NCBI GenBank assembly: GCA_001244265.2
Contig: CDLV01000019.1
Coordinates: forward strand, 434,001-498,000
Length of the DNA stretch: 64,000 nt
Direction: 5' to 3'
Source: Microbotryum violaceum
Lineage: Eukaryota
The position numbers were made by a program, and so were the translations under genes. Positions 40,884 through 56,370 of this stretch are shown here, piece after piece (the stretch's first letter is position 1; each line of letters opens with the position of its first letter). The notes under the pieces were generated by a model that worked only from the letters and a program-made list of their open reading frames with translations, was not told where the DNA came from and did no database searches.

Positions 40884-43800
40884 AGAGAGATAGGCGCGCG
40901 CGCAGAATAAGGAATTAACCAAGACGAATAGCAATGAGTTAGGCTCTCAGAACCTACTTCTAGAACTCCCACCGATCAAAAAGACTAACGAGACCATTCC
41001 AAAGTAGCGCACGAAGTTGGGTCAAAGCGTTAAAACCCCAAAGGCTTCGTCATAATATCCGCGGCATTGACGTGGCTAGCTGAGGGCAGTACTCAAGTTC
41101 GACCTCGCCAGAAGCAACCCGTTCTCAAACAAACAAGTGAGCGGTGTCGAAGTGCTTGGTTCGCATGTGATCGACCGGATCCTTGGCGATCTGGATGCAC
41201 GCGGCGTTGTCCTCTGGAATGATATATAATGATAGTAGGGTGTGCTTGCGGAATGCCGACATCACCAGCCAAACGACGGAGCCAGATTGCTTCACGAGTG
41301 GCCGAGGACGCAGGGAAGATTTCGGCTTCGGTAGTGGATGTCGCGATCATGAATTGTTGCTTTGACTGCCAGGAGATGATGCCGCCAGCGAGAATCGATG
41401 CATAGGCTCCCAACGATCTGCGAGATTCCGGATCGTCCGCAAACGAGGCATCGGAGTAGCCATCAATTGAGCTGTAGAACTGTTGCGATAAAGAATTTCC
41501 AAATCGATGGTGCTGTTGAGGTAGCGAAATATACACTTGACCGCAGACCAATCGTCGACAGCCGGACAGGAGTTCTTTTAAGCAACAGCACAAACAGCAA
41601 TCGCGATATCGGGTCGACATCGAGTAAACGCGTATTGGAGGGAACCGACAGCCAATTGGTAGAATGAAACATCGGCAAACGGAGTAGCGCGAGGGGCGAT
41701 CGTCCATGGCCGTGACTTCACGGCGCTTGGATGGAGAAGCGAAATCGAACTTCTCGAGCATAGTGCAGACATATTTGCTTTGGTGGACGAGGGTGTGATC
41801 CTTGGTGCGATGGATTTCGAAGCCCAAAAAGTAGGAGACGGGTCCGAGACGTTTGAACTTGAAGGCCTTGTGAAGCGATGCGAGCTCGGAGTCCAAGAAG
41901 GACCGACTGTTGGACGCAATGAGACCATCTTCAACATAGAGAATGATGACTGCAAACGAATTGCCCGAATGTCTGAGGTAGAGGCAAGCATCGGCAGTTG
42001 CCCTCATGTAGCCTCGAGACACTATGAAATCGTTGGCAGCTCGATACCATTCATGAGGCGCCTGCTTGGTGCCATACATCGAGCCAACGAGATTGAGGCA
42101 TTTGCCAGGTGATTGAGAATCATTTCATCCTTTTGGGTATCGAACATAGACATTCTCGGCCATCTTGCCGTTGAGAAAGGCGCAGTCGAAATCGAACGGT
42201 TCAAGATACGGACCTGAGCAGCAGCTAGAGCAATCAAGAACAGAATCGTCGAAGGACGAGCGACAGGAGCGTAGTTGTTATGATAGTCCATGCCTGGGCG
42301 TTGAGCAAATCCTTGAGAAACGAGACGAGCTGTGAAACGAATGATGTTGCCCCTTGCGTCGCCCTTGATACAGATCGTGCCGAGTACCCAAATGCCTTCG
42401 TGCCACTTACTTCCTGACAGACTCCATGATGATCGAATTGTAGAAGTTCTGAGACCATTGCCGCACTCCAATGGTTGCGATAGGGTGACTTCATGGCTTC
42501 CTCGAATATCTTGGGTATCTCGTTGTCTTCTTCGGCGAACATGGCGGCACTGCACAGTAGGCATCGTAGGAGAGCTTGTCGTGGAACATGGGTGGAGTAT
42601 CGAAGTCGACCGTGATAGCTGCAATGATAGGAAGGATAACTTCCGGAGGTTGAGGTCGGTGACAAGAACCAGCAGGAAGGACGTTGGAAGGGTTGACATT
42701 CTCGAGCTGGCCAGGATTTGGACCAGTGCGAACAATGGGATAATCTTCACGAGGAGCGAGAGCGACTTTCGCCTCGCTGTCGAGTAGTTCTGCTGCGTCA
42801 TGATAGTCATCAGGTCCATCGTCAGGTCCAACGTTGTCGTCATTGTCGTCATCCTTTCGAGGAACGACTGCAAGAGCCGCCCCTGTGGGTCCGGCAAAGT
42901 TGGATCCATAACAGGCGAAGCCGGTGTAAACGGCAACACATCTGGCGGATGAGGTTGAGAATGATGAACGGGAACGGAAGCTTCCCGTAGTTGTATTCAA
43001 CGGAGTACCCGAGTAAAACTCCCTGACTGGAGGGAGGTGCAAGCTTGGTTCGACGCTCCTCGGGTACGTGGACAAACGCCGTAGATCCGAATGGCTGCAA
43101 ATGAGCAAGACTAAGCTTCTTGCCGAGAAGGACTTCGATTGCCGTTTTGCCTTGGATACGAGGATGTGGTCGACGATTCAGGACAAATGTCGCGACGGCC
43201 AGACCAGAAGCGCATGGGAGGACCGGAGTCGAGAAGCATCGATCGAACGAGACCCATGAGAGGTCCTTTGAGTCGCTCTACTTGAACATTTTGCTCCGGA
43301 GTATAGGGGGACGTGAATTCCACGATGATGCCCTGCTTTATTAGAAGATCCCGGAACAATGAGTGATCGAATTCACGACCATTGTCCGATCTGTAACCCA
43401 AGGTCGCGGAATCTCGCGAACGGGCCATCCGCCGCAACGATTTGGCATGCAAATACATCGCCAATTCGATCTCTGAGGAACAGACGTCCCACTTAATTCA
43501 TCTTACCTCGGCGTACGAGATGTGGGACACCTTCCGAGGCCTCCACTCGAGTCTCGATCTCACGGTCGCCCGAGTCGCACTATGGACCTCCTGAACACTC
43601 TGGCGCAACCCTACGCTGCGGATATTCCTCTCAAGGAATTCGTCAACAAGGTCAAGATCGCCATGACCGATTTTCAGGAGCTCGTTGACGAATTCTCCGG
43701 AAGGGATACCCCCAGTGTAGGTTTGTGCCAGTGTTCAAGAGGTCCATAGTACGACTAGGGCGACCGCGAGGACGGAAGGTGTCCCACATCTCGTACGCCA

Positions 43801-44047
43801 AGGTAGGATGTATTAAATGAGACATCTGTTCCTCAGAGATCGAATTGGCGATGCATTTACCTGCCAAACCGTGGCGGCGGATGGCCCGTTCGCGATGTTC
43901 CGCAACCTTCAAGTCCGCAACTTGGAAGCTGGTGAGCCCGGGCGGAGTGCGCAGAACCACTCAGCCCGTTAGTAAGAGATAGGTGCGCGCGCAGAATAAG
44001 GAATCAACCAAGACGAATCTAATAGCAATGAGGTAGGCTCTCAGACA
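40884..44047 (-). mobile_element. Degenerate Ty1/copia retrotransposon
   Basis: Copia domain order: gag (IANSISEEQ...AYEMWDTF), integrase (RSDNGREF, SPYTPEQN..ERL, FGSTAFVHVP), RT (ARLV.QGFAQRPG.DY, MYGTKQAP, LYVED), RNase H (GYSDASFA..RRS, STTEAE, ADIMTKPL). Many frameshifts. A ~70-bp direct repeat at 40886-40951 and 43975-44045 marks LTR remnants; PPT-like GGTGGGAG precedes the 3' copy. Confidence 0.93.
43400..43909. repeat. Inverted duplication of copia gag (hairpin B): arms 43400-43650 and 43681-43909
   Basis: CATCGCCAATTCGATCTCTGAGGAACAGA, GGCGTACGAGATGTGGGACACCTTCCG and GAATTCGTCAAC each recur as reverse complements. About 30-nt loop. Confidence 0.95.
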
Positions 44048-44071
44048 CACACCACACACAGCTCACGAAAC

Positions 44072-45553
44072 ATGTCGTCCAAAGAAGGAGCCAAGCTCAA
44101 AGCCGAGTGAGTGAACGTCAACGCGTGATCACTCGGTTCGTCGCTGACCACTGCGCTCGCATCTCGTGTACCCAGAGCCGAGAAGGCGCTCAAGCCGTCG
44201 GTCAGTCCTATCGCGCCTCCTGCCGTCGTACATGGAGATCACTGACGTGTGCTCCGTTGCCAATCACATCAGTGGTTTGGTAGTCAGAAATCGAGAAACA
44301 CTGCCGCCGAGGAGCTGTACGAGCAAGCCGGTAATCGTTACAAGGTCGGTCGCACGAGGCTGCACCACGTCATCGAGCCTCCGTTCGGCCGGGGGGCAAG
44401 ACCGTAGTGACCAGCATGCCCGCCCTGCGCCCCGCTAGACCAACCACCTTGCTGACCCAATGATCTGATGTTATGCACAGGGTGAAGGCTACTTGAACGA
44501 TGCTGGGTTCTGCTACGTCAAGGCCGGCGAGCTGGCACGCACCAACGACGAACGCGCCTCCGCGGCCAACCACTTTTGGAACGCATGCAAGGTCTACAAG
44601 AAGCAGGATCCTCATCGTAAGCAGACCAGTCTCATCTGGAGCCTATTCATTCGGTTGCATGGCCGCAACTCGGTTCGGATCCATCTGCCCGTTCCTATCG
44701 CCGACTAACCCCATACGATTCAACCCCCACTTTGGCCCAGTCGCCGTGGGCGCACTGCAGAACGCGATCGAGTTGTACAAGTCCGACAACAAGTTCCGAC
44801 AAGCTGCCGATCGGGAGAAGGAGATGGCTGCCATATGGCAGGCCGAAGGAGGCAATCTGAACGAGGCTTTGAATGCGTACGAGCGAGCGGCGAGGCTCTA
44901 CGAAGCCGAGGATGCGCAGGCGTGAGTTGAAAGTGATCCCTACCTATACACAGTCAATAACTGAAGAGAACACTCGATTCCCATTAGCACTGCGAACGCA
45001 TGCCTCAAGGAAGCCGCCGAGCTTGCCGCTTCGGTCGGCGAGTACCCTCGAGCGGTCACCCACTTTGAAGCTGTGGCCAAGCATTCCTTGACCTCGGCAC
45101 TGACGCGCTACAGCGTCAAAGAGTACTACCTCAAGGCTGCGCTTTGTTGGCTCGCGACAGGGGTGAGTACTTGCGTAGACTTGGTGTGCGTCTGATGATC
45201 CAGCTGACGGAGTGATTGATCGACTTGACAGGATGTCGTCTCGACCCAACGCAAGCTCGAGGAATACTGCTCACAGGATCCTAGCTTTGGCGCAACACGC
45301 GAAGCCAAATTTATCCACGACATCGCGGATGCCTTCGAGGGTGGGGATACAGAAGGGTTCACGGCTGCCGTGGCCGACTTTGATCGGTACATCGCTCAGC
45401 ACTCGTTCGTTCGCCCATGGAGTGGCACAAAGACTGATTTCACAACCCTTGGTCGTCTTTTCTGAGAGCAGCTTGACACGACTCGACAACTGGAAGACGA
45501 CGATCTTACTGGCCATCAAGCGACAAATCTCCGAGGAGCCGAGCCTGTCGTAG
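44072..45553 (+). CDS. SEC17: Alpha-SNAP (vesicular fusion protein Sec17)
   Basis: Spliced MSSKEGAKLKAE|AEKALKPS|WFGS...AAEELYEQAGNRYK|...AANHFWNACKVYKKQDP|...FRQAA...|SALTRYSVKEYYLKAALCWLA|...DPSFGATREAKFI...|LTRLDNWKTTILLAIK. Confidence 0.92.
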
Positions 45554-45797
45554 AAAGGCCTCGGCTTTCTCTCATGTGGCACAGCCCATCCCTCTCCGCT
45601 GGGTTACGGAGAGGGAAGAAGGAACCACCCTATTGTATGCTTTTCACATTTCGTTTGTAATAACTAATTTGATCCGTATCCTGCCATACGTGCGGCATTG
45701 CCTTCTTCCCCTTCTCCCACTCTTGACAATTCACGTCCGTCTGCTTCGCCATTGCGAGACAACCCTTTCTGCTCGTCCCCCCAAGGTAAGGAGCGGC

Positions 45798-46200
45798 CTA
45801 CCCTTCGGCTTCTGCCCTCAATTCGAGGTGGAGATTCTTCTGCTCGCAGACTGGACGCAACTTTGTCCACCGCGGGTAAGAGAACGGTCGATCGCTCTCC
45901 TCATCGGACCAAATGGGCGATTCTGCTGGGAGCCATTTTCTTACTTCTTGAACGGCGACAATGACGACAGTCAACGACTTGAGCGCAGGGAGCTCAGTGG
46001 TCTGGTTTCCAAGCCTGCAGAACCCAGTCACAACTTGTTGGTACAGTTGGCGTTGGAAGGGCTCTCGCCACGTTCGGCACGTCGCAGACGCATGGCACAA
46101 ATTGCCCTTTGTGCCTCTCGCCCTCCACCACTCCCCACCACGAACATCGGTGAATCACGCGATGATGCATAGTAGCTCGGGTGGTGTTCGCCGTTGCCAA
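45798..46200 (-). pseudogene. F-box protein pseudogene (paralog of the adjacent F-box gene)
   Basis: RRTPPELLCIIA*F (in-frame TGA)...NLCHASATCRTWREPFQRQL joined almost directly to C-terminal RWTKLRPVCEQKNLHLEL. Matches both ends of the 46674-47970 product, with the middle missing. Confidence 0.7.
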
Positions 46201-46673
46201 CACGACCCCAATGGCAGGAGTGTCATCGATTCCAGAACCTCCGCCGGTGATGGCTCGACGCTTCGGACGACTGACGCTCGAAGAGCTGCGATCGATCGCA
46301 ACTCGGCTGCTCTTGATCTTTACGCCCAAGATGATCTGACATCTGCCTTCGGATCGGACTCCGGGTATCGACCCGTGTTTGGACGCGTCGCAAAACCAGT
46401 GACTTGACTCATAGAAAGCTTTTCCATGTGAGTTTGAATAAACGGAGGTTGATAAAGTCATAAAGTCTGGTCAAGGGTTTTCTTTCAGTTCTGTATCCCC
46501 ACCCACCCAGTCGCAGAAAAGATGAAAGTCTCCCCGAGAGAAACCATATTTGGGAGTATCAGACCCATGGAATTTCAAACATCTCAAGCATCGGTGACAG
46601 ATTCACGTCTAAGCAATTATCAAAGGAAAGGTTTGACATGATCATCCAGAGAGGAGTCGTTGTGGCCTTTGTT

Positions 46674-47970
46674 CTATTCGTTGGACTTAGTCAAGGGGCC
46701 TACCACATTGAGATCAATGGTCACATTTTGCTTGTCACACCAGCTCTTCAGCTCATCCCAATTGGTTTCGTTCAACTGCGAGTCGATTTTGGTCTTCGAC
46801 CAAACGACGGCTTCCTTCTGGCCGACCCGAGCGTTGGACATGTGGAACCAAACTTGAATGTTGACGAGCCGAGGAAGTTCGCTCGTCTGAAGGCTCTTGA
46901 GTAGAGCGACTAAGCAGACCTCGAAGCCCAGCTTGGCGTAAACTGAAAAGTTGATGCACAGCGTGTGGAAAGGCGCATACGAAGGGATTGCCGCCACGAG
47001 GGGTCGAACGGAATTGAGCTCTTGGGCGTGATTGCGGCCGTGACACCCCGCGTAGGACAAAACACTCAAGCGGAAGACCCGGAGCGATATGCACGCTTGA
47101 AGACCCTCTACGAAAAGCTTGATGATTGTAGAGCTTGCATCGAGTCCATCGTCCTCGAGGATGAGAGAGAATTCCTTTAGTCGCACGCCTTTGCAGGTCA
47201 GGAGCTCGACCTCGAGCGCTTTGCGCGTCGGCGATTCATGGTCAAAGAGCACATCGTACCCGCATGTCAACTCGATCTTGACGAGTGCGGGCGTGCTCAC
47301 GCCCCGTGCAAATAGGGAGAGGGCACGTAAGCGCACTTTGCGGCATTTGAGAAAAGTGAGCTTCGGGAGCACCGGTCGCATGTGTCCCAACCGCTCGAGG
47401 CGGCAAGATTTGACGCCGCTCAACTCGAGCCGTTCAAGATCTGCGGGGAGGGGGGTTGGGGTCAGTGTCTCGGATCGCTATCATGTATTACACAAATGAA
47501 GCGGGTAAGTTTGTACTTTGAAGATCATACTTGATGGCGAAGAGATCCAGCACCAACTCTTCTTGCGACACGCAAAGCGCCTTGACCGACGATCGCGTCA
47601 GGCTCAGTAGGTCGAAGAGGAACTTGGCGGCGGCGGTCTTGTCCCGAACGAGCGAAACGAGGAGGCGGTGGATCGGGTACTGCCTCGCCAGACTGAGGTC
47701 ACGTGCCTCGTGCTCGATTCCACGCCCGATCGCAACATGCAGCTCCTGCATCAGCTGGCGCGAAAAGGGACCGCGCCATGCTCGACAGGTTGCAGCCGCG
47801 TTGCGAAGGTCTTGGAAAACCGACTTGGTTCGCCATTCGATATCGCCGTCATCCCTGTCGTCGTCGTCGTCGCTGCGACGCTGATCGACAAAGGCCGCAA
47901 TGTCACCGAGGAGCTCGGGCGGCAGGCGGCGAACTGCTTTACCACTCGCTTGTGCGTGTAAAGGCGCCAT
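46674..47970 (-). CDS. F-box protein with LRR-like C-terminal region (lineage-specific)
   Basis: RRLPPELLGDIAAF...LRNAAATCRAWR F-box. Phase-1 intron 47441-47516. Repeats such as LERLEL, LPKLTFL, LKEFSL, LRVFRL and LPRLVNI. Confidence 0.7.
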
Positions 47971-48403
47971 GTTTGTATTGAGGGGGCGAGGGTCGACAAC
48001 GAGGCGCCCGGTCAATCTGCTATCACGAGTGGGCAAACCCTGCTGGCGGAGCGCACCGAGCACGCGCGGGGGCGCGTCCGAGTCGCGACGAGAGCAAGAC
48101 GCTATGCCCTGCTACACCTGTCCTGCCTACGCCTCGGCGCGTGACGCGTGACGCGTACGTCACGTCACGTCAGCGTTTCACCCCTGAGCGCCTCAGCGCT
48201 CAGCGTGAAACTGCGTGACGCGTGAGGCAAGGCATCGCCTTGCACAGCTCCCTCCGCATTCTCGCTCCTTTTCCTCAACGCCGCCAGATTCCCCAGTGAA
48301 CATTTGCCCATTTTAGCAGTGAGTGGGTTCCTGAATCGACCTGAGCAATCTGAAACCAAGTCGACGATGGTGTTGAGCCTGATACTACTGTCATGTCGTT
48401 GCA

Positions 48404-49550
48404 GTGAATCGGACATCCATCGTCGCCGGGCCGTCGTCCTCCACTTCCACTTCCCCCGATCAACGCTCGCAAAGTGGCGAATACCGAGATCAACTAGACG
48501 AGCTCGAGTCCGACTCTGAAGCCGGTACGGACGTCAACGATGCGGAGAATGACTCGGACTCCTGGAGCATCGCCTCGTCACGTTCTTCATTGATCGTGTT
48601 CGAAGAAAGCATGGGTTGGTCGGATGGAGATTCGCTCACGGAGGAGGACAGGCACGCCACCAAAGTCGACCAGGAGTTTGCGAAACATGTCCAGGATCGA
48701 GAGCGCGAGTCTCAAACAATGAAAAATCACTTCATCAAACCTCGTCCCGAGGACGATTCGCGCCACGTTAGCTGGACCGGTCGCTTGGGATCGAGAAGGT
48801 CCGTTGAGGAGATCGAGGAAGCGATTAGGTTGGCAACGGTGAGTGCGGACAGCCCCCATTGCAACTCATTCAGGGTTAAGCAGTGGAACTGATTTGATCG
48901 AGCGAAACCGCACGTCCTGGCACGTAGGGGGGACAATCTCGGCTCGTCGTATGCCATAATGAAAATCGGCCCTGCGCAGAGTGTCGCTTCGAGCCGACCA
49001 GCGAGGGGCCTTCGCTCGATGAGACGCCCGACGTCGTCATTCTTCCTCTCGAGGTCGTCAACGACAAGGACTCGGACTATGTGGGGGCTTGGAGTCGTCT
49101 CAGGGAAGGCGAGAGGGATATCCGTGACTGGATTCAGGTCACAAGCGTCGGCATCGTACAACATAGCGACAGCTCGCGACATGCCCGTCGCGCCGTGCCC
49201 CGCCTCAAGCGCCAGCTCCTGCGGATGTTGAACACGCCGATTCGTGACTTTGCTCTCGGGTTCACCCTGTTGGGGTCGGCTCTGACCATTTACACCCTCA
49301 CGAATCAAGGTCTGTACTACTCCCCACCCATCGAGTGTACGCTCGAGAATGGCAACCTCTCGACGTTCCTCTTCCGTCTACTCGACATGAGCAATATCGA
49401 ACTCGGTGTCCGGCTGTCGTACAATGGGAGCTTCAGCCTGGAGGGACTCAAAGAAATCCCTTTAGGCTGATCCCTGAGGCGGAGAAACACTTCACGTCGA
49501 TCATCCGGGGGCCCCCTTTGGTTATCGCAACTCCACCTGTCCATGACCGA
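48404..49550 (+). pseudogene. FunK1 (Pkinase_fungal) family N-terminal part, truncated or frameshifted
   Basis: TPDVVI...W..V.SVG...QLLRMLNTPIRDFALGFTLLGSALTIY...G.YYS...FLFRLLDMSNIELG resembles the FunK1 N-terminal region. Stop or frameshift at ~49468; no in-frame catalytic core; no clear start ATG. Confidence 0.6.
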
Positions 49551-49665
49551 GTTTTAGTATTGAAGTCCGGTTTCATAGTTGATGATTGTATAGTGCAACA
49601 TGAGTACAAGCATTTGGAGTGCTTCTCCCCAAGTTCCCATTCCAAAATAACACGTTCACCCCGTT

Positions 49666-49940
49666 TCAGGCTCGGTGCAAGACACTGAGGGGGAGTGCAG
49701 CCTCAGCCGAGCTACGGGAGGGCCTCGCTCGGAAAATGCCGCGGTGGTCGAGCTCGAGCAGGTGTAGAAGAACTTTCGTGAGGAGGTTCTTGTTCGCGTC
49801 TATGCGACAGTCCCGGGTCTCAGTCGCGAACACACCGCAGGCGTTGACCAGGTACACACGAAGCATCTCGCCGCAGAGCGTGAATCTGATCGCATGGGAG
49901 CGGGTCGGCGTGGTCAATAACATGTGGAGTGGACGCAGGA
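49666..49940 (-). pseudogene. Second FunK1 N-terminal fragment in the opposite orientation
   Basis: MLLTTPTRSHAIRFTLCGEMLRVYLVNACGVFAT...LTKVLLHLLELD aligns by eye to MLNTPIRDFALGFTLLGSALTIYTLTNQGLYYS...LSTFLFRLLDM. Confidence 0.55.
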
Positions 49941-50097
49941 GTTGCGGCTTCGTCTCCTTGACTTCGCCGCATTCAGCTTCTTCAGTTCACCGACAGCTCC
50001 AACTTGGGGGAAAAGGCGCCTCGAGCGCCAATCCTGCGTCGACTCCACATGTTGTTGACCACACCGATCCGCTCCCCGCCCCACGCGCGGAGACCCA

Positions 50098-50950
50098 GGG
50101 GCTCAGCCGGATCGTCGGCGTTCACCGCGGCGCTTTCCGGATTCTCCCCGACTTCCTTTCCGACGACGAGGTGTTCGAAGGCATCGAACCCCGTGCACTT
50201 GAAGTCGTCTTCTCCGAAGAGTGTTACACCACACTAGACTCGGTCCAGGATACCGAAGCCATGGCTCGCGTCGTGTTGGGCGTCATTCACGGGGAGCATC
50301 CCACGACGAGTGCGGCTCTTGGGGGTTGTCCCTGATCGAACCCCGCTCATGATAAGGTCACTGGAGCCTACACCGACTCGGCTTTCTCCACCGTGACGTC
50401 TCGACCAACAACGTCATGGTCGATCGCCCCGGGCACGGGGTGCTGATCGACTATCATTTGGCGGTGGCGTAAGATCGACCTGTCCATGACCTCATTTTCA
50501 AGACACGCTCCATCGCTAGAGACGTATACCGGAGGGTTGGAGCGTGTCTTGAAGATAAGGTCATAATCTGGCAAATCGTGCGCCTCCGCCAGCTGAGTCG
50601 ATCAGCACCCGTACCGAGTGCGATCGACCATGACGTCGTTACGTCACGGTGGAGGAAGCCGAGTTGATGCAGGCTCCAGTAGCCCTGACATGAGCAAGGG
50701 ACACTCACTCCCCAAGGGCCGCAATCGTCGTCTTGGGATGCTTACCGTGAATGACGTCCAACACGATGCGAGCCATGGCTTCGGTATTTTGGACCGAGTC
50801 TAGTGTGGAGTAACACTGTTCGAAGAAGCCGACTTCTAGCGCACGGACTTCGATGCCGTCGAAGACATCGTCATGGGGAAGGAAATCGGGGAGGATCCGA
50901 ACAACGCCGCGGTGAACGCCGCGGCCGAGCCGACGATTCGGCAGAGCCCC
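50098..50950. repeat. Inverted duplication of a FunK1 kinase catalytic-core pseudogene (hairpin C): arms 50098-50512 and 50538-50950, 25-nt loop
   Basis: The plus arm encodes RALEVVFSEECYTTL...VIHG|HWSLHRLGFLHRDVSTNNVMVDRPGHGVLIDYHLAVA*. The minus arm encodes the homologous RALEVGFFEQCYSTL...YWSLHQLGFLHRDV. TTCAAGACACGCTCCA/TGGAGCGTGTCTTGAA closes the loop. Confidence 0.95.
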
Positions 50951-51045
50951 CCGGATCTGGGCGAGCACCACTGGAAACTGAGAGCGAGGATGGGGCGTGA
51001 GTCAACTGAATCGCTGGTTTCGACGCGTTCGATGTGTTGCAGAAA

Positions 51046-51298
51046 TGTTCTCAAGTGGAAACTGATGATGACCACGACTCAGTCCAATGAACAGGGACGA
51101 GAACAGAGTAAGGTAAGATTCCAAAGAGCTCACCTGATGATGACCACGACTCAGTCCAATGAACAGGGACGGGAACAGAGTGGCCAGAGACTAAGAGACA
51201 GACTCGCGGAAGGCTAGAAAGTGAAGCGTAAAGATAATAAGGAAAGAGATTAGAGACTAGTAAAGTAAGGAGATTGAGTGACTAAGGAGTGAATGACA
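51046..51298 (-). mobile_element. Probable solo or decayed LTR containing a 48-bp tandem duplication
   Basis: The minus strand starts TGTCATTCACTCC at 51298 and is pyrimidine-rich like the 40570 LTR; a possible ...GAACA end lies at 51046. CTGATGATGACCACGACTCAGTCCAATGAACAGGGACGRGAACAGAGT occurs at 51062 and 51134. Confidence 0.45.
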
Positions 51299-52565
51299 CG
51301 CCGCTAGGCTCAATGCCAAGTACCATAATAGGAACGATAACCAGATGAAGGACGGAACAACCCATATGACCATATACGAATGACACGATGGACACGGTAG
51401 GAGGGAGGCAGACGCGGTCGACAAGCTAGGAGTCAGGCATGGACGGCGGACAGAACTTCTACCTTGCGCATGGAGATTGGGGGAGCTTCAATCACGGTGG
51501 TTTTCTTGTCGGTGGGATCGACGATGAAGACGATTCGGGTAGACAGGATTTTGGAGGTGGGATTTGGGGGGGAGGAACACCCGGAAGGGCATGACAACGC
51601 CCAAGACGACTCATCGGAAATCTGGGTGGGGTCGGAAATCCGGGTGGGGTCGGAAATGGGGCGTTCAACCTCTTTCAAGCCAATTTAGACTGTGACATCA
51701 TCAAGGAGGACACGGACGATACGAGCGAGCCAAATTCTTTCCATCAGTCTGCTGCTGCGACTTCTCTCGTTCGGTTTGCGAAAACGATTTCTCGAGCTTC
51801 TGTACGGGTTTCAGGTATCGGAATTGTACGTTTATAGGAAGGGGGCACAGAAGGAGATCAGAGGGAAGGGGAAGAAGGGGGCGAAGGTCGAAGATTCTAG
51901 TGGGCCGGGGAAAAAAAATCCTTGTCGAGGGGGAGACAGGGATCAGGATCTCAGGAACCGGAGAAGCGGAAGAAACGGAGGACACGGAGAAGGCGGAGGG
52001 AGCGGAAGAACTGGCGGACGCAGTCACAACACACGAACCTGAAATGGCGACGGAAACAGACTCCTTAAACTTGAGGCATCGATCGGCTTCGGTTTGTAGT
52101 ACTTTAATTTGCCGGAGGCCTTCGACTCCAGGAAAAGTCAACACGGGCGCGCGTTTCTGGGAATTGCTGCGGGGTGCTCAAGCGGCAAAAGATGAGCAGT
52201 CAGATGAGTCGGAGCGGTCGGTCTTCAAGGTGTCCTGGACGGCCATGACGGTGGGAAGGAGAAAAACGAGGATTGGGAGCTCGAGGTCGAGAAAGGAGAG
52301 GAAATGATGACAATGACTGCGTACAAGGAGGTTGGGGTCAGGTTGACCGACGAGAACATGGCGGTGATTGATTACGGCGGGGAGCGAGTGCTGATGTAAG
52401 GTATACGCCTCTGATGTGCATAAAACACAATTTGTCGTTCTTGACCGCTACGCTAAAAGCAAGTCGTAACTAGAACTCGATAGTTCTAGCTACTCTACTT
52501 ATGGGGCTGTTCCTCTAAGGCATCCCCTTACACGGGGTGGGCCTCCTGTCGTTAGTACCTTATCT

Positions 52566-52568
<3 letters not shown>

Positions 52569-52598
<30 letters not shown>
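52569..52598. repeat. (TC)15 microsatellite
   Basis: Perfect dinucleotide run. Confidence 0.9.
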
Positions 52599-52602
<4 letters not shown>

Positions 52603-53494
52603 ACATTAGTCTCCTCGGGGGGAGCAACCGCTTGGCTGGGGCACTTGACTCCCGTTATTGGATTGGTGGACACTGGTTCGTTTCTCGCACTTTGGCGGGC
52701 GGTTTGTGTTATCATCGTCGACTTCCTTCTGGTCTTTCCATAGGCCAATGAGGGGGAACAGGAATTGGGGGCAATATAATGAGCAGTTTCTACAAGAAGA
52801 AAAAAACCCTTGCATAAAGGGCTTCCGGAACGGTGAGGAGCTCATGGTCGAGCATTTCGTGTGCGTGCGCGATCGTCATGGTTGGTGAGAGATGGAAAGG
52901 TGAGGGAGTGAGAGGGTAGTACCCGAGGTGCGTCAGACGTGAACAAGTTGCGCGTGACGGGGACCGGCGCGCTCCTGGCTCACCAGCTCGATCTGACCCC
53001 TCGGAATCACTCCGAACCATGGAGGGGCAAGACAAGTAATGAATCCTTCGGACTTAGAGTAGTACGAGCAGATGCGTTAAGATACAAGTGTCATTTACAA
53101 CCATCAAGAACACTGCTTTTTTCATTGTTGCTGCTACATATCAGGTCGACTGGGTGACTGAGGGTGACTGAGGGGTCTCCTTTCGGAAGACCGCAGCGCC
53201 GAGGGAGCTGCGATACCGAGCGGCGGCGGCGCGGGCTCGCGTCATTGGCACGGATGAAGCAAGCTCGTAGAGGTGGCGACTCGCTGTACTATGTGCTTTT
53301 CTCATTAATTTTTTTTCTCACTTGCACGTATCAGGCCGCGTTGCACAGCGACTCCGTCTGGTGTCCTATTCTCTGTTTTCTCATTGTTTAGGTAGAACAG
53401 AGTCTGAGGATTAACCGTAATGGAATGCGATGATCCAAAGCCTCTTATGCACAAAAATGATCCTATTCCAAAGGTCCGGTCCGGTCCGCCTCCT

Positions 53495-56045
53495 TTATTC
53501 CAGCTCATCCGCACGCATCAATTCCTCGTCCTCCCTCTTGCTGTCTCCGAAAACCTCCTCCTCATGCACCGGCACCAACTCCACCGACTTCTTACCCCCT
53601 TCTTCCTTGAGCCTAAATCTCGCCGTGTCCCCATCCCTAATGGTCCCTTTCAAAATTCCCGACGCCAACTGCTGTCTCACCACTTTATTCAACAACCGAT
53701 TCACCTCCCTGGCTCCCCAACGAGGTTGATACGCTTCTTTCGCCAACCAGTCCCTCGCCTCTGGGTCAATAGATAAGTGGATCTTGCGTTCGCTGGTATT
53801 GAGCATCTGTTGAATTTCGGAAAGGCGCATGTCGATGATGGATGCGACATGAGTGGGCGAGAGGGAATTGAAAACGATTTGTTCGTCGAGTCGATTGAGG
53901 AGTTCAGGTGGGTAGAGCGAACGAACGCGTTCGAGAACGAGGTCCCGAGCTACAGGGGTCACTTCACCATTGGGTGAAATGGATTCGGGTCGCATGAGGA
54001 TATCGGAGCCAATGTTGGAGGTGAGGATAATGGTCGTGTTCTTAAAGTCGAGTTTACGACCATGAGAGTCCGTCAGAGCGCCTTCGTCGAGGATTTGAAG
54101 GAGTATGTTGGCGACGGAGGGATGCGCCTTTTCGAATTCGTCGAAGAGGATCACCGAGTGGGGATGACGACGAACGACCGACAATTCGCCTCCGTCTTCG
54201 TAACCTACGAAACCGGGGGGTGCACCGATCAGTCTTGCGGCGGTATGTTTGTCGTGATATTCGGACATGTTGAGGGTGACTAGTCGATCGGTGCCCGTCA
54301 ATTCGGCGGCAAGCGCTTTCGAAAGCTCCGTCTTGCCTACGCCCGTGGGACCGAGGAAGAGGAAAGAAGCGACGGGCCGATTGGGGTTGTGTAGACCGGC
54401 ACGGGAGAGTCGAACGGCTTCGGCGACGGCGTGGAGAGCGGGCTCTTGGCCCACGACACGTTGGCGAAGGATCGACTCGAGGTCGACCAATCGAGCACGG
54501 TCACCACGCATCAAGGCCGAGACGGGGACGCCCGTTGCTTTGGCAACGACGCGAGCAACGTCCGAAGCAGTGACCCGCGCTTGACCCGCTTGAGCGGCTT
54601 CTTGACCATCCTTGGGGACCTGTGCTTCGAGCTTGGGGATTGTCGAATACCTCAACTCGGACGCCTTGTCGAATTGCCCGGTCCGAACGGCTTCCTCCAA
54701 TTCGAAGCGTTTCCTCTCCAATTCTTCTTTGGCCTGTCGGATCTTCTCTCCTCGCTCCCTCTCGTCCCTCCACTCCTTCTCCATCTTGGACGCCTTGTTC
54801 TTGAGCCGGGCGATCTCGTCGACCAAGACCTCACGACGTGATCGACTGGCCTCGTCTTGGTCCTTGCCCAAGCTCGACAACTCGATCTGCAACGTCGTCA
54901 AGTGTTGTTCGAGCGCCTCGAGTTGCTCCGGCTTGGATTCCCTCGCGAGGCGCAACGCCGCCGCCGCTTCGTCGATCAGATCAATGGCCTTGTCCGGTAA
55001 TTGTCGATCGGTGATGTAGCGTTGCGAGTAGGTGACGGCGGCGATTATAGCGGCATCAGAAACGATCACGCCATGATGAACTTCCATGCGCGACTTGCCA
55101 CCTCGCAACATGGTGATGGCTTGTTCGGCCGAAGGTTCTTCGATCGTCACTTTTTGGAAGCGGCGCAGCAAAGCGGCATCCTTTTCGAGTTCGCGAAATT
55201 CGTTCCAGGTCGTTGCACCGGCGAGTTGAAGACCCCTTGCGAGAGCGGGCTTGAGCATGTTACTTCCCGTGAGACTGCCTTCGGCTTTTCCGAGTCCGAG
55301 TAGTTGGTGAATCTCGTCTGTGGGGCATGAGGTAGTTAGCGTCGGGCTCATGGAAGAAAAAGTTGAGCGTGTTCCACTCACCGATGAAGACGATGATCTG
55401 CCCCTTGGCATCCTCGATATCGGCAATAAGATCCTTGAGCTTGCCTTCGAACGATCCCCTGACGGCGGTACCACTCATGATGGACGCCAAGTCGATCGAG
55501 ATCAATTTCTTCCCCTTGAGTGACTCGGGCACCTCGCCCGCGACCAATCGTTGCGCAAGAGATTCAATGATGGCCGTCTTGCCTACACCCGCTGCACCAA
55601 CCAGGACAGGGTTGTTTTTGGTGCGCCGGGAAAGGATCTGTATCGTGCGTCGCACTTCGTCGTCTCTTGCAATGACGGGGTCAAGTTTCCCCTGGCGCGC
55701 GAGCTCGGTCAAATCAACGCCGTGTTCTTTCAGAGCGGCACCCGGTTCGCGCTTGGGTTGACTGTTGAAGATGTTGCCGATTGGGAAACCACCACCGCCG
55801 CCGCCCGCGTTGTTGTGGTTGTTGTTATTACCGCCGGGTGGCGGTGGGTGTTGGGCTGGGGCTCGAGGAGGGGACGAATGTGAGAAGGAGCGAGCTTGAA
55901 GTGAGGACCTCCTCAGCGTCGGCTGGGTGGTGGTGACTTGGATCGTCGGTCGCCACAGCAGCTGGCCATGACGGTGTGCAGGACGGAGTAAACGAGGAGC
56001 AGTAGATGCAGAGGTGAGCGAGCGCAAAGAGCTTCTCTGGAGCAT
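53495..56045 (-). CDS. HSP78: Mitochondrial ClpB-family disaggregase Hsp78
   Basis: R/S-rich presequence MLQRSSLRSL and no Clp N-domain; GKLDPVI, KNNPVLVGAAGVGKT, FI|DEIH (one intron ~55318-55381), LPDKAIDL, GPTGVGKT and GAPPGFVGY. Confidence 0.95.
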
Positions 56046-56370
56046 AAAGATACCAAGTATGGGCTGTGTAGAGTGCGTTCGAGTGTGAGTATGTGCGTGG
56101 TGTGTATGGGAGAAGGGCAAGGAACTGATCGAGCTGGGATGTGGGGGTGGACCCGGTGACTCGCGCGCGGGAAATTGAAAATGCTTCGATTGGATTCTGG
56201 TAAATTCCATTAGCTTCCGGGCCGTTCCTGGCCCAGTCCGACCTCGCCGCACGGGGGCACGTGATCTGCTCCACCGTCCCTGCTCCGTCATCATCGATCA
56301 GAATCCGCCCTCGCCCATCGCCATACGGCGTTGAACGACCCCCGTCCGGTTGGGTTGCACTACAGTCGGA

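Follow-up and report, generated by a model that had tools for sequence, protein, structure and literature searches.

Fold-back inverted duplications, generated by the repair of DNA breaks or by template switching in replication, are a well-known class of rearrangement, and an event of this kind necessarily yields two arms with the same homologous end point. Long inverted repeats derived from protein-coding genes are also known as sources of small RNAs. In Drosophila, hairpin RNA (hpRNA) loci of this origin give rise to endogenous small interfering RNAs (endo-siRNAs) (PMC10317233, PMC10292708), and the inverted-duplication model proposed for plant MIRNA genes starts from an inverted gene fragment that produces a foldback with extended similarity to its parent family (PMC3237417). 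Among basidiomycetes, miR1 and miR2 of Cryptococcus neoformans are reported to map to transposable elements (TEs) and pseudogenes (PMC3530498), and the genome report for Microbotryum lychnidis-dioicae describes one Dicer, two Argonautes, and one RNA-dependent RNA polymerase (RdRP), all of them expressed (PMC4469406). Here, we describe a palindrome in the anther-smut fungus Microbotryum violaceum built from two diverged, inverted fragments of a FunK1 protein kinase gene. It lies in a stretch of 64,000 nucleotides (nt) of contig CDLV01000019.1, which was analysed as a whole and is referred to as the window; all positions are those of the window.

The locus is a scrambled, decaying FunK1 pseudogene, in which a catalytic-core segment is present twice, in opposite orientations. 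We consider that it is probably a fold-back palindrome of some age, confined to a single locus and retained through common descent in sister genomes, and it would have no selected function today. The parts of the palindrome are listed below; proteins recovered in the searches are numbered P0001, P0002, and so on.

50085–50517, plus strand: left arm, a FunK1 fragment in sense orientation, equivalent to residues ~348–495 of P0003 (Pfam, tblastn, translation; P0001 97% identical)
50138–50293, plus strand: first exon block of the left arm (translation)
50292–50356, plus strand: intron-like stretch of the left arm, with its donor mutated to GGGAGC (sequence)
50357–50469, plus strand: second exon of the left arm, with HRD...VLID (translation, Pfam)
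50513–50537, no strand: 25-nt loop, enclosed by the innermost stems 50500–50512 and 50538–50550, which pair perfectly (read from the sequence)
50533–50965, minus strand: right arm, an antisense version of this FunK1 fragment in a more advanced state of decay (alignment, tblastn; P0009 98% identical)

The two arms are about 430 nt long each. A gapped alignment of 50085–50517 with the reverse complement of 50533–50965 gave 84.3% identity over 453 columns, comprising 348 matches, 65 mismatches, and 40 gap columns that correspond to 10 insertion or deletion (indel) events. A repeat scan divided the same structure into four collinear inverted pairs, 50116–50309/50728–50921 (194 nt, 87%), 50345–50405/50635–50695 (82%), 50407–50439/50608–50640 (85%), and 50454–50517/50533–50596 (75%), and all of them were recovered again in a scan of positions 44000–54000. 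The axis of the palindrome is near 50525, and the arms approach to within 15 nt of each other if mismatches are allowed. The longest perfect Watson–Crick run between them is 20 base pairs (bp); with G:U pairs allowed, the plus-strand RNA has an uninterrupted helix of 64 bp. The calculated folding energy of an 886-nt RNA was −659.4 kcal/mol for the plus strand (about −341 for shuffled sequences, z −40) and −660.9 kcal/mol for the minus strand (about −346, z −35), and the observed value was matched by none of 20 shuffles on either strand. These folds predict that a transcript of either strand is able to form an imperfect duplex of ~430 bp.

A hairpin with two diverged arms had been proposed at this place from the letters of the sequence alone (hereafter the original prediction), and the repeat scan, the gapped alignment, and the RNA folds all confirmed it. 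The predicted 25-nt loop was found between the innermost perfect stems, the arms do end at the same homologous point (50512 and 50538), and the two peptides quoted for the arms occur exactly, at 50138–50293 on the plus strand and 50744–50899 on the minus strand. The detectable similarity of the arms (~50085–50965) is slightly wider than the predicted extent, 50098–50950. A continuation of the palindrome past 50085/50965 into the N-terminal remnant of the gene described below was rejected, the local alignment being no better than alignments of shuffled sequences (P 0.46).

Both arms are fragments of the FunK1 catalytic core. The second exon of the left arm (50356–50469) matches the Pkinase_fungal profile (PF17667) with 27.0 bits and an E-value of 2.4e-6 over profile positions 298–340 of 387, the gathering cut-off being 24.1 bits. 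The other five of the six arm translations, including all three of the right arm, have no Pfam match singly; the right arm is a member of the family by homology, since it is 80% identical (E 1.3e-28) to P0002, a protein carrying PF17667. Comparison of P0003 (649 amino acids, aa) with the window by tblastn located the same region of the protein in both arms:

50078–50299, plus strand: P0003 residues 348–421
50356–50493, plus strand: P0003 residues 444–489
50929–50738, minus strand: P0003 residues 358–421
50684–50637, minus strand: P0003 residues 444–459

Residues of P0003 beyond ~495 have no tblastn match in either arm. Both arms align to Microbotryum FunK1 proteins of 630–778 aa, and the FLHRDV catalytic-loop motif is present at 50359–50400 on the plus strand and at 50640–50681 on the minus strand. 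Neither arm has an open reading frame (ORF) with a complete kinase domain: about 150 of ~650 residues are represented, the C-terminal ~160 residues are absent, and the frame is broken in both arms. The assignment of the arms to the FunK1 catalytic core, made in the original prediction, was therefore right, for the left arm by the Pfam match and for both arms by tblastn. The profile search suggested with it gave a score above the gathering value for the left-arm second exon and left the three right-arm translations unmatched. The HRDV...GVLID core ascribed to both arms holds for the left one, but in the right arm HRDV and VLID are in different reading frames.

The donor hexamers at the supposed exon–intron boundary are those predicted, GGGAGC in the left arm (50292–50297) and GTAAGC in the right arm (50745–50740 of the minus strand). 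The prediction of the same intron in both arms is plausible: the gene models P0007 (named M. lychnidis-dioicae) and P0011 of relatives join ...VVKG to HRNLY..., omitting the homologous 25 codons, whereas five other models (P0003, P0004, P0005, P0006, and P0008) read through them. The possibility that this stretch is mere coding sequence was dropped, since P0007 and P0011 splice the homologous stretch out. As the intron-like stretch is present in both arms, the copy was presumably made from DNA and not from mRNA.

Neither arm has escaped disabling lesions. In the left arm, the donor GT has changed to GG, the acceptor being one that would restore the frame, and a TAA stop codon at 50470–50472 occupies the position of a histidine in the relatives. 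The right arm has lost 7, 1, and 2 nt between and after the HRDV and VLID motifs and carries, relative to the left arm, an insertion of 11 nt near its outer end; its donor is kept, but the frame at its acceptor is off by one base. These four indels were assigned to the right arm by the lengths of the relatives, and the HRD...VLID block of the left arm has the family length.

The remainder of the gene is also rearranged. The normal order of the gene is seen in P0002, in which an N-terminal block (residues 1–61), a middle block (62–170), and the core (171–256) follow each other. Upstream of the palindrome, the window contains two further pieces:

49741–50010, minus strand: inverted FunK1 N-terminal block, P0003 residues 144–218 (tblastn, Pfam)
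50015–50076, plus strand: short sense copy of the start of the N-terminal block, ..LHMLLTTPIRS (translation, inverted pair)

Residues 1–61 of P0002 map to 49923–49741 on the minus strand with 80% identity, and the inverted block aligns to positions 41–108 of Pkinase_fungal with an E-value of 9.7e-4 and 18.4 bits, under the 24.1-bit cut-off. The short sense copy is joined straight onto the left arm, and no tblastn match to the middle block, P0002 residues 62–170 (~110 codons), was found in the window. The start of the N-terminal block in its two orientations constitutes a second hairpin directly upstream of the main palindrome, with 49896–49946 pairing with 50026–50076 (51 nt, 88%, 79 nt between; fold −118.7 kcal/mol, z −10.4). 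In place of the last ~160 codons of the gene, the locus has the inverted copy.

Each arm has a counterpart in related genomes. A word-based search with the left-arm ORF yielded two proteins among 236 candidates, P0001 (195 aa, named M. silenes-dioicae, 97% identical to the left arm) and P0002 (256 aa, named M. saponariae, 90% identical to the ORF). By these matches the window belongs to Microbotryum, its source probably being closely related to M. silenes-dioicae. An exhaustive HMMER search with the right-arm ORF found eight proteins at E ≤ 1e-3, three of them close: the best match was P0009, a 95-aa gene model located on the right arm in a relative (98% identity), followed by P0002 (80%) and P0001 (75%), and the identity of the rest was at most 44%. 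The gene models P0001 and P0009 on the two arms are in convergent orientation, and the first exon of P0009, only 7 residues long, maps further right, near 51370 on the minus strand. Since the left-arm search gave only two proteins and the right-arm search only three close ones, the data point to one palindrome locus per genome, and not to a repeat family. The 195-aa and 95-aa "hypothetical proteins" annotated on the arms in relatives are very likely pseudogene pieces, which should be kept in mind when these annotations are used.

Searches with P0002 revealed FunK1 proteins of 630–778 aa with 55–57% identity (4 among 2166 candidates) and two further FunK1 proteins of 262 and 420 aa with 56–58% identity. 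The nearest full-length FunK1 subfamily (P0003–P0008, P0011, and P0012) is multi-copy and near-identical across species in the aligned block; for example, P0005 and P0006 do not differ at any of 62 residues, and 20 sequences make up the cluster of P0005. By its sequences, this subfamily looks recently amplified.

A protein tree of 14 rows and 62 columns, including both arms, P0001, P0009, P0002, and eight other FunK1 proteins, was constructed. One clade (support 82/89) unites P0002 with the two arms and their orthologues, P0001 for the left arm and P0009 for the right; it is split from the eight other FunK1 proteins with support of 98/96. The tree thus suggests that both arms come from one small lineage rather than from two distinct paralog lineages, and it is because of this single small clade, together with the shared end point of the arms, that a fold-back origin is favoured over a fusion of paralogs. 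In the free tree, the right arm is weakly joined with P0002 (66/67). Constraining the left arm with P0002 cost 0.68 log-likelihood units (approximately unbiased (AU) test, P 0.34); two sites (FEG versus FDG and EEC versus EQC) unite the left arm with P0002, and no site unites both arms. If the duplication preceded the M. saponariae split, outgroup polarisation gives ~5 changes on the left and 7–8 on the right in 62 residues, which is roughly clock-like; if it followed that split, the right arm would have evolved about six times faster (stem 0.30 versus ~0.05).

In the scenario that we prefer, an inverted copy of the catalytic-core segment would have been made from DNA, together with the introns, in what was likely a fold-back or template-switch event with its axis near 50525. 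A mirror image of codons ~348–495 would thereby have taken the place of the last ~160 codons of the gene, the left arm being the parental one and the right arm its inverted copy. The locus could have been scrambled further by another, smaller fold-back, which affected the N-terminal block, and by the loss of ~110 internal codons.

Several points weigh against this scenario. Constraining the two arms together cost 1.08 log-likelihood units with an AU P of 0.045 (P 0.34 for the left arm with P0002), and the tree allows a duplication before as well as after the M. saponariae split; the right-arm lineage is about six times as long as that of the left arm in the protein tree (0.30 versus ~0.05). 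The pattern of differences between the arms is another such point. Calculated by the Nei–Gojobori method (NG86), the ratio of nonsynonymous to synonymous divergence (omega) was 0.46 over a block of 52 codons, in which 8 differences are synonymous and 13 nonsynonymous. Extending the block by the 14 codons up to HRDV, to 66 codons, lowered omega to 0.33 (12 synonymous, 15 nonsynonymous; binomial P 0.02). The arms differ by 14 amino acids, versus 18.1–18.4 expected from random placement of the same 27 substitutions (P 0.026–0.039), and none of the 10 indel events falls in the 156-nt first exon block. The omega values below 1, the 14 rather than ~18 differences, and the indel-free first exon block suggest that the protein sequence was still constrained to some degree once the two copies had separated; a gene killed at duplication should show no such constraint.

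As to the constraint, the blocks tested for omega were chosen since they are still translatable, which biases the test. The second exon of the right arm is full of frameshifts, and the intron (7/52) shows the same substitution divergence, ~13.5%, as the two exon blocks (21/156 and 14/104); both observations argue against coding constraint. One copy, probably the parental left one, may perhaps have been under some constraint for part of the time. Repeat-induced point mutation (RIP)-like hypermutation was rejected as the source of the divergence, since transitions and transversions number 37 and 28 (16 and 11 in the coding blocks).

Among the alternatives, the one that survives best, although we regard it as unlikely, is that the palindrome is a selected hairpin-RNA locus, which is transcribed, diced to siRNAs, and holds down FunK1 relatives in trans. 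This corresponds to the family-wide silencing put forward in the original prediction, which has so far gained no support. A transcript of either strand folds into a long hairpin, with the 64-bp helix on the plus strand when G:U pairs are counted, but the longest perfect Watson–Crick run is only 20 bp, and the substitutions show no bias towards keeping the pairing on either transcript. Selection for RNA pairing on one strand was rejected on this account, the wobble-preserving transitions being 16 versus 21. Genes of RNA interference (RNAi) are reported to be expressed in M. lychnidis-dioicae (PMC4469406), and because this species is reported with expressed Dicer, Argonautes, and RdRP, a transcript through the locus, if there is one, could by analogy be a plausible Dicer substrate; the hairpin would then be an incidental substrate for the Dicer/Argonaute machinery. 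Both arms are kept at 97–98% protein identity in relatives and carry convergent gene models there, but these models may be ab initio predictions, and literature searches found no Microbotryum small-RNA dataset.

No sufficiently similar target of such siRNAs was seen among the FunK1 proteins recovered or within the window. Two stretches of 8 residues, PRALEVVF and LIDYHLAV, are identical in the arms and other family members, which agrees with regulation in trans, and they are the only long stretches common to the arms and other FunK1 proteins. However, the nearest full-length or long relatives are 55–58% identical to P0002 and 44–53% identical to the arms at the protein level, and the longest match to the hairpin elsewhere in the 64-kb window is 14 nt. 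No Rfam match was obtained over the whole window, and no paper joining FunK1 and Microbotryum was among the matches listed in a literature search. It is quite unlikely, in our estimate, that the locus is a young hairpin-RNA gene born from FunK1 by inverted duplication and kept in sister species as its siRNAs restrain a FunK1 copy or subfamily. Were the hairpin-RNA explanation true, the convergent gene models on the arms would reflect real transcription, and the 8-residue stretches common to the multi-copy FunK1 subfamily would be the contact points.

The original prediction suggested that the arms may come from two FunK1 paralogs that diverged while coding and were later fused. In this version, two diverged genes lay tail-to-tail, both of them coding, and a later deletion removed both 3' parts. 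We consider it very unlikely. Independent truncations within a few bases of the same homologous position would be needed, which is a coincidence; both arms belong to one small clade, with no other paralog closer to either; and the intron is no more diverged than the exons. The omega values of 0.33–0.46 (P ~0.02–0.04) and the absence of indels and stops from the first exon block of either arm are what one would expect from two coding genes. The FEG/FDG and EEC/EQC sites, at which the left arm agrees with P0002 but not with the right arm or the outgroups, and the borderline rejection of the arms as a clade (AU P 0.045) also fit two separate genes, but this asymmetry is equally explained by a duplication that predates the M. 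saponariae split. The fusion of two paralogs was thus not supported.

The tests suggested with that prediction gave mixed answers. Its statement that many differences between the arms are conservative or synonymous agrees with the modest synonymous excess, but the intron is equally diverged; the omega values, proposed as a check, give a weak sign of past constraint. The suggested phylogeny of the arms against other FunK1 copies recovered one clade (82/89), within which a grouping of the two arms is borderline disfavoured (P 0.045) and one of the left arm with P0002 is not rejected (P 0.34).

It is highly improbable that the palindrome was carried or left behind by a mobile element, be it of the foldback type or a DNA transposon, such as a Helitron, that had captured a gene fragment. 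Helitrons are reported to make up 10% of the TE sequence in M. lychnidis-dioicae (PMC4469406), a degraded copia-like element is located ~7 kb off at 41096–43497, and the outer arm ends lie roughly at the deletion junction, 50077. On the other hand, the repeat scan of 44000–54000 detected no flanking terminal repeats of 20 nt or more, either inverted or direct, the arms themselves excepted, and the 85 short ORFs of 48300–51400 contain no transposase or helicase domain. The protein searches indicate one copy per genome, and in P0002 the left-arm sequence is found in a normal collinear gene context. An assembly artefact, as could result from a chimeric, folded-back long read, is effectively refuted by sequence comparison and has next to no probability: palindromes with short loops are a known artefact class, but these arms differ by 65 positions and 10 indel events, and relatives carry near-identical gene models on both the left arm (P0001, 97%) and the right arm (P0009, 98%).

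Another FunK1 remnant is located upstream of the fold-back pseudogene:

48928–49467, plus strand: "gene A", the N-terminal part of another FunK1 copy, which is more distant (only positions 18–117 of Pkinase_fungal, E 4.1e-8, 32.8 bits)

"Gene A" is 32% identical to P0002, residues 2–81 of which were placed at 49225–49440 by tblastn, and no matching kinase core follows it. Its presence beside the palindrome suggests, at the level of sequence, a small cluster of dead FunK1 genes. A Pfam analysis that covered the 289 stop-to-stop ORFs of the window with 90 aa or more and the 85 ORFs of 48300–51400 with 24 aa or more identified only the three FunK1 pieces reported here, and neither a transposase nor a helicase. 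A direct similarity of 24 nt (83%) was detected between 49532–49555, in the region of "gene A", and 50475–50498, in the left arm just past its stop codon; a common origin from one FunK1 segment or mere chance may account for it.

Immediately outside the right arm, at 51062–51181, there are two copies of a 48-nt unit, 98% identical and with a spacing of 72 nt. The FunK1 relic occupies a stretch of ~5 kb without other domain matches, flanked by an ORF pair at 46677–48111 (minus strand), for which no Pfam matches were found, and by a gene for a ClpB/Hsp78-type AAA chaperone at 53498–56297 (minus strand). The element at 41096–43497 (minus strand) is a degraded copia-type retroelement with RVT_2, SH3_retrovirus, and integrase-core matches over several frames.

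Compared with the FunK1/Pkinase_fungal family (PF17667), the locus has a left-arm second exon scoring above the gathering value and the HRD loop and VLID motifs, but with ~150 of ~650 residues and no intact frame, it is a rearranged pseudogene and not a kinase gene. Fold-back inverted duplications produced by break repair or template switching are similar in their inverted arms, in the asymmetric 25-nt spacer, and in the common homologous end of the arms. Further points of likeness are that one arm runs on into what remains of the parental gene and that a second small fold-back is present in the same locus. The difference is in age, since the event described here is old, with arms 84% identical and separated by 10 indel events. 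If the palindrome is a scar only, it provides a clean, dated example of a fold-back rearrangement in a fast-turning-over fungal kinase family.

Like the hpRNA endo-siRNA loci of Drosophila, the palindrome is a long inverted repeat that stems from a family of protein-coding genes, and its host presumably has RNAi as well. The similarity of the arms to the family is far lower here than in a working hpRNA–target pair, and the locus is known from its DNA alone; of the features of an hpRNA locus, the predicted foldback is the only one found here. The plant MIRNA inverted-duplication model is similar in that an inverted gene fragment results in a foldback with extended similarity to the parent family. 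The plant and C. neoformans cases are backed by reporter silencing and by small RNAs that were cloned or sequenced, whereas our comparison concerns DNA anatomy, and the stem of ~430 bp is much longer than that of a typical miRNA precursor. If the palindrome is transcribed and diced, it would show how a hairpin-RNA locus arises from a gene in a plant-pathogenic basidiomycete, and it would offer a tractable system in which to ask whether genes, besides transposons, are under the control of endogenous RNAi in Microbotryum. Under the hairpin-RNA explanation, the FunK1 palindrome would be a fungal counterpart of the Drosophila hpRNAs and of the inverted-duplication route to plant miRNAs.

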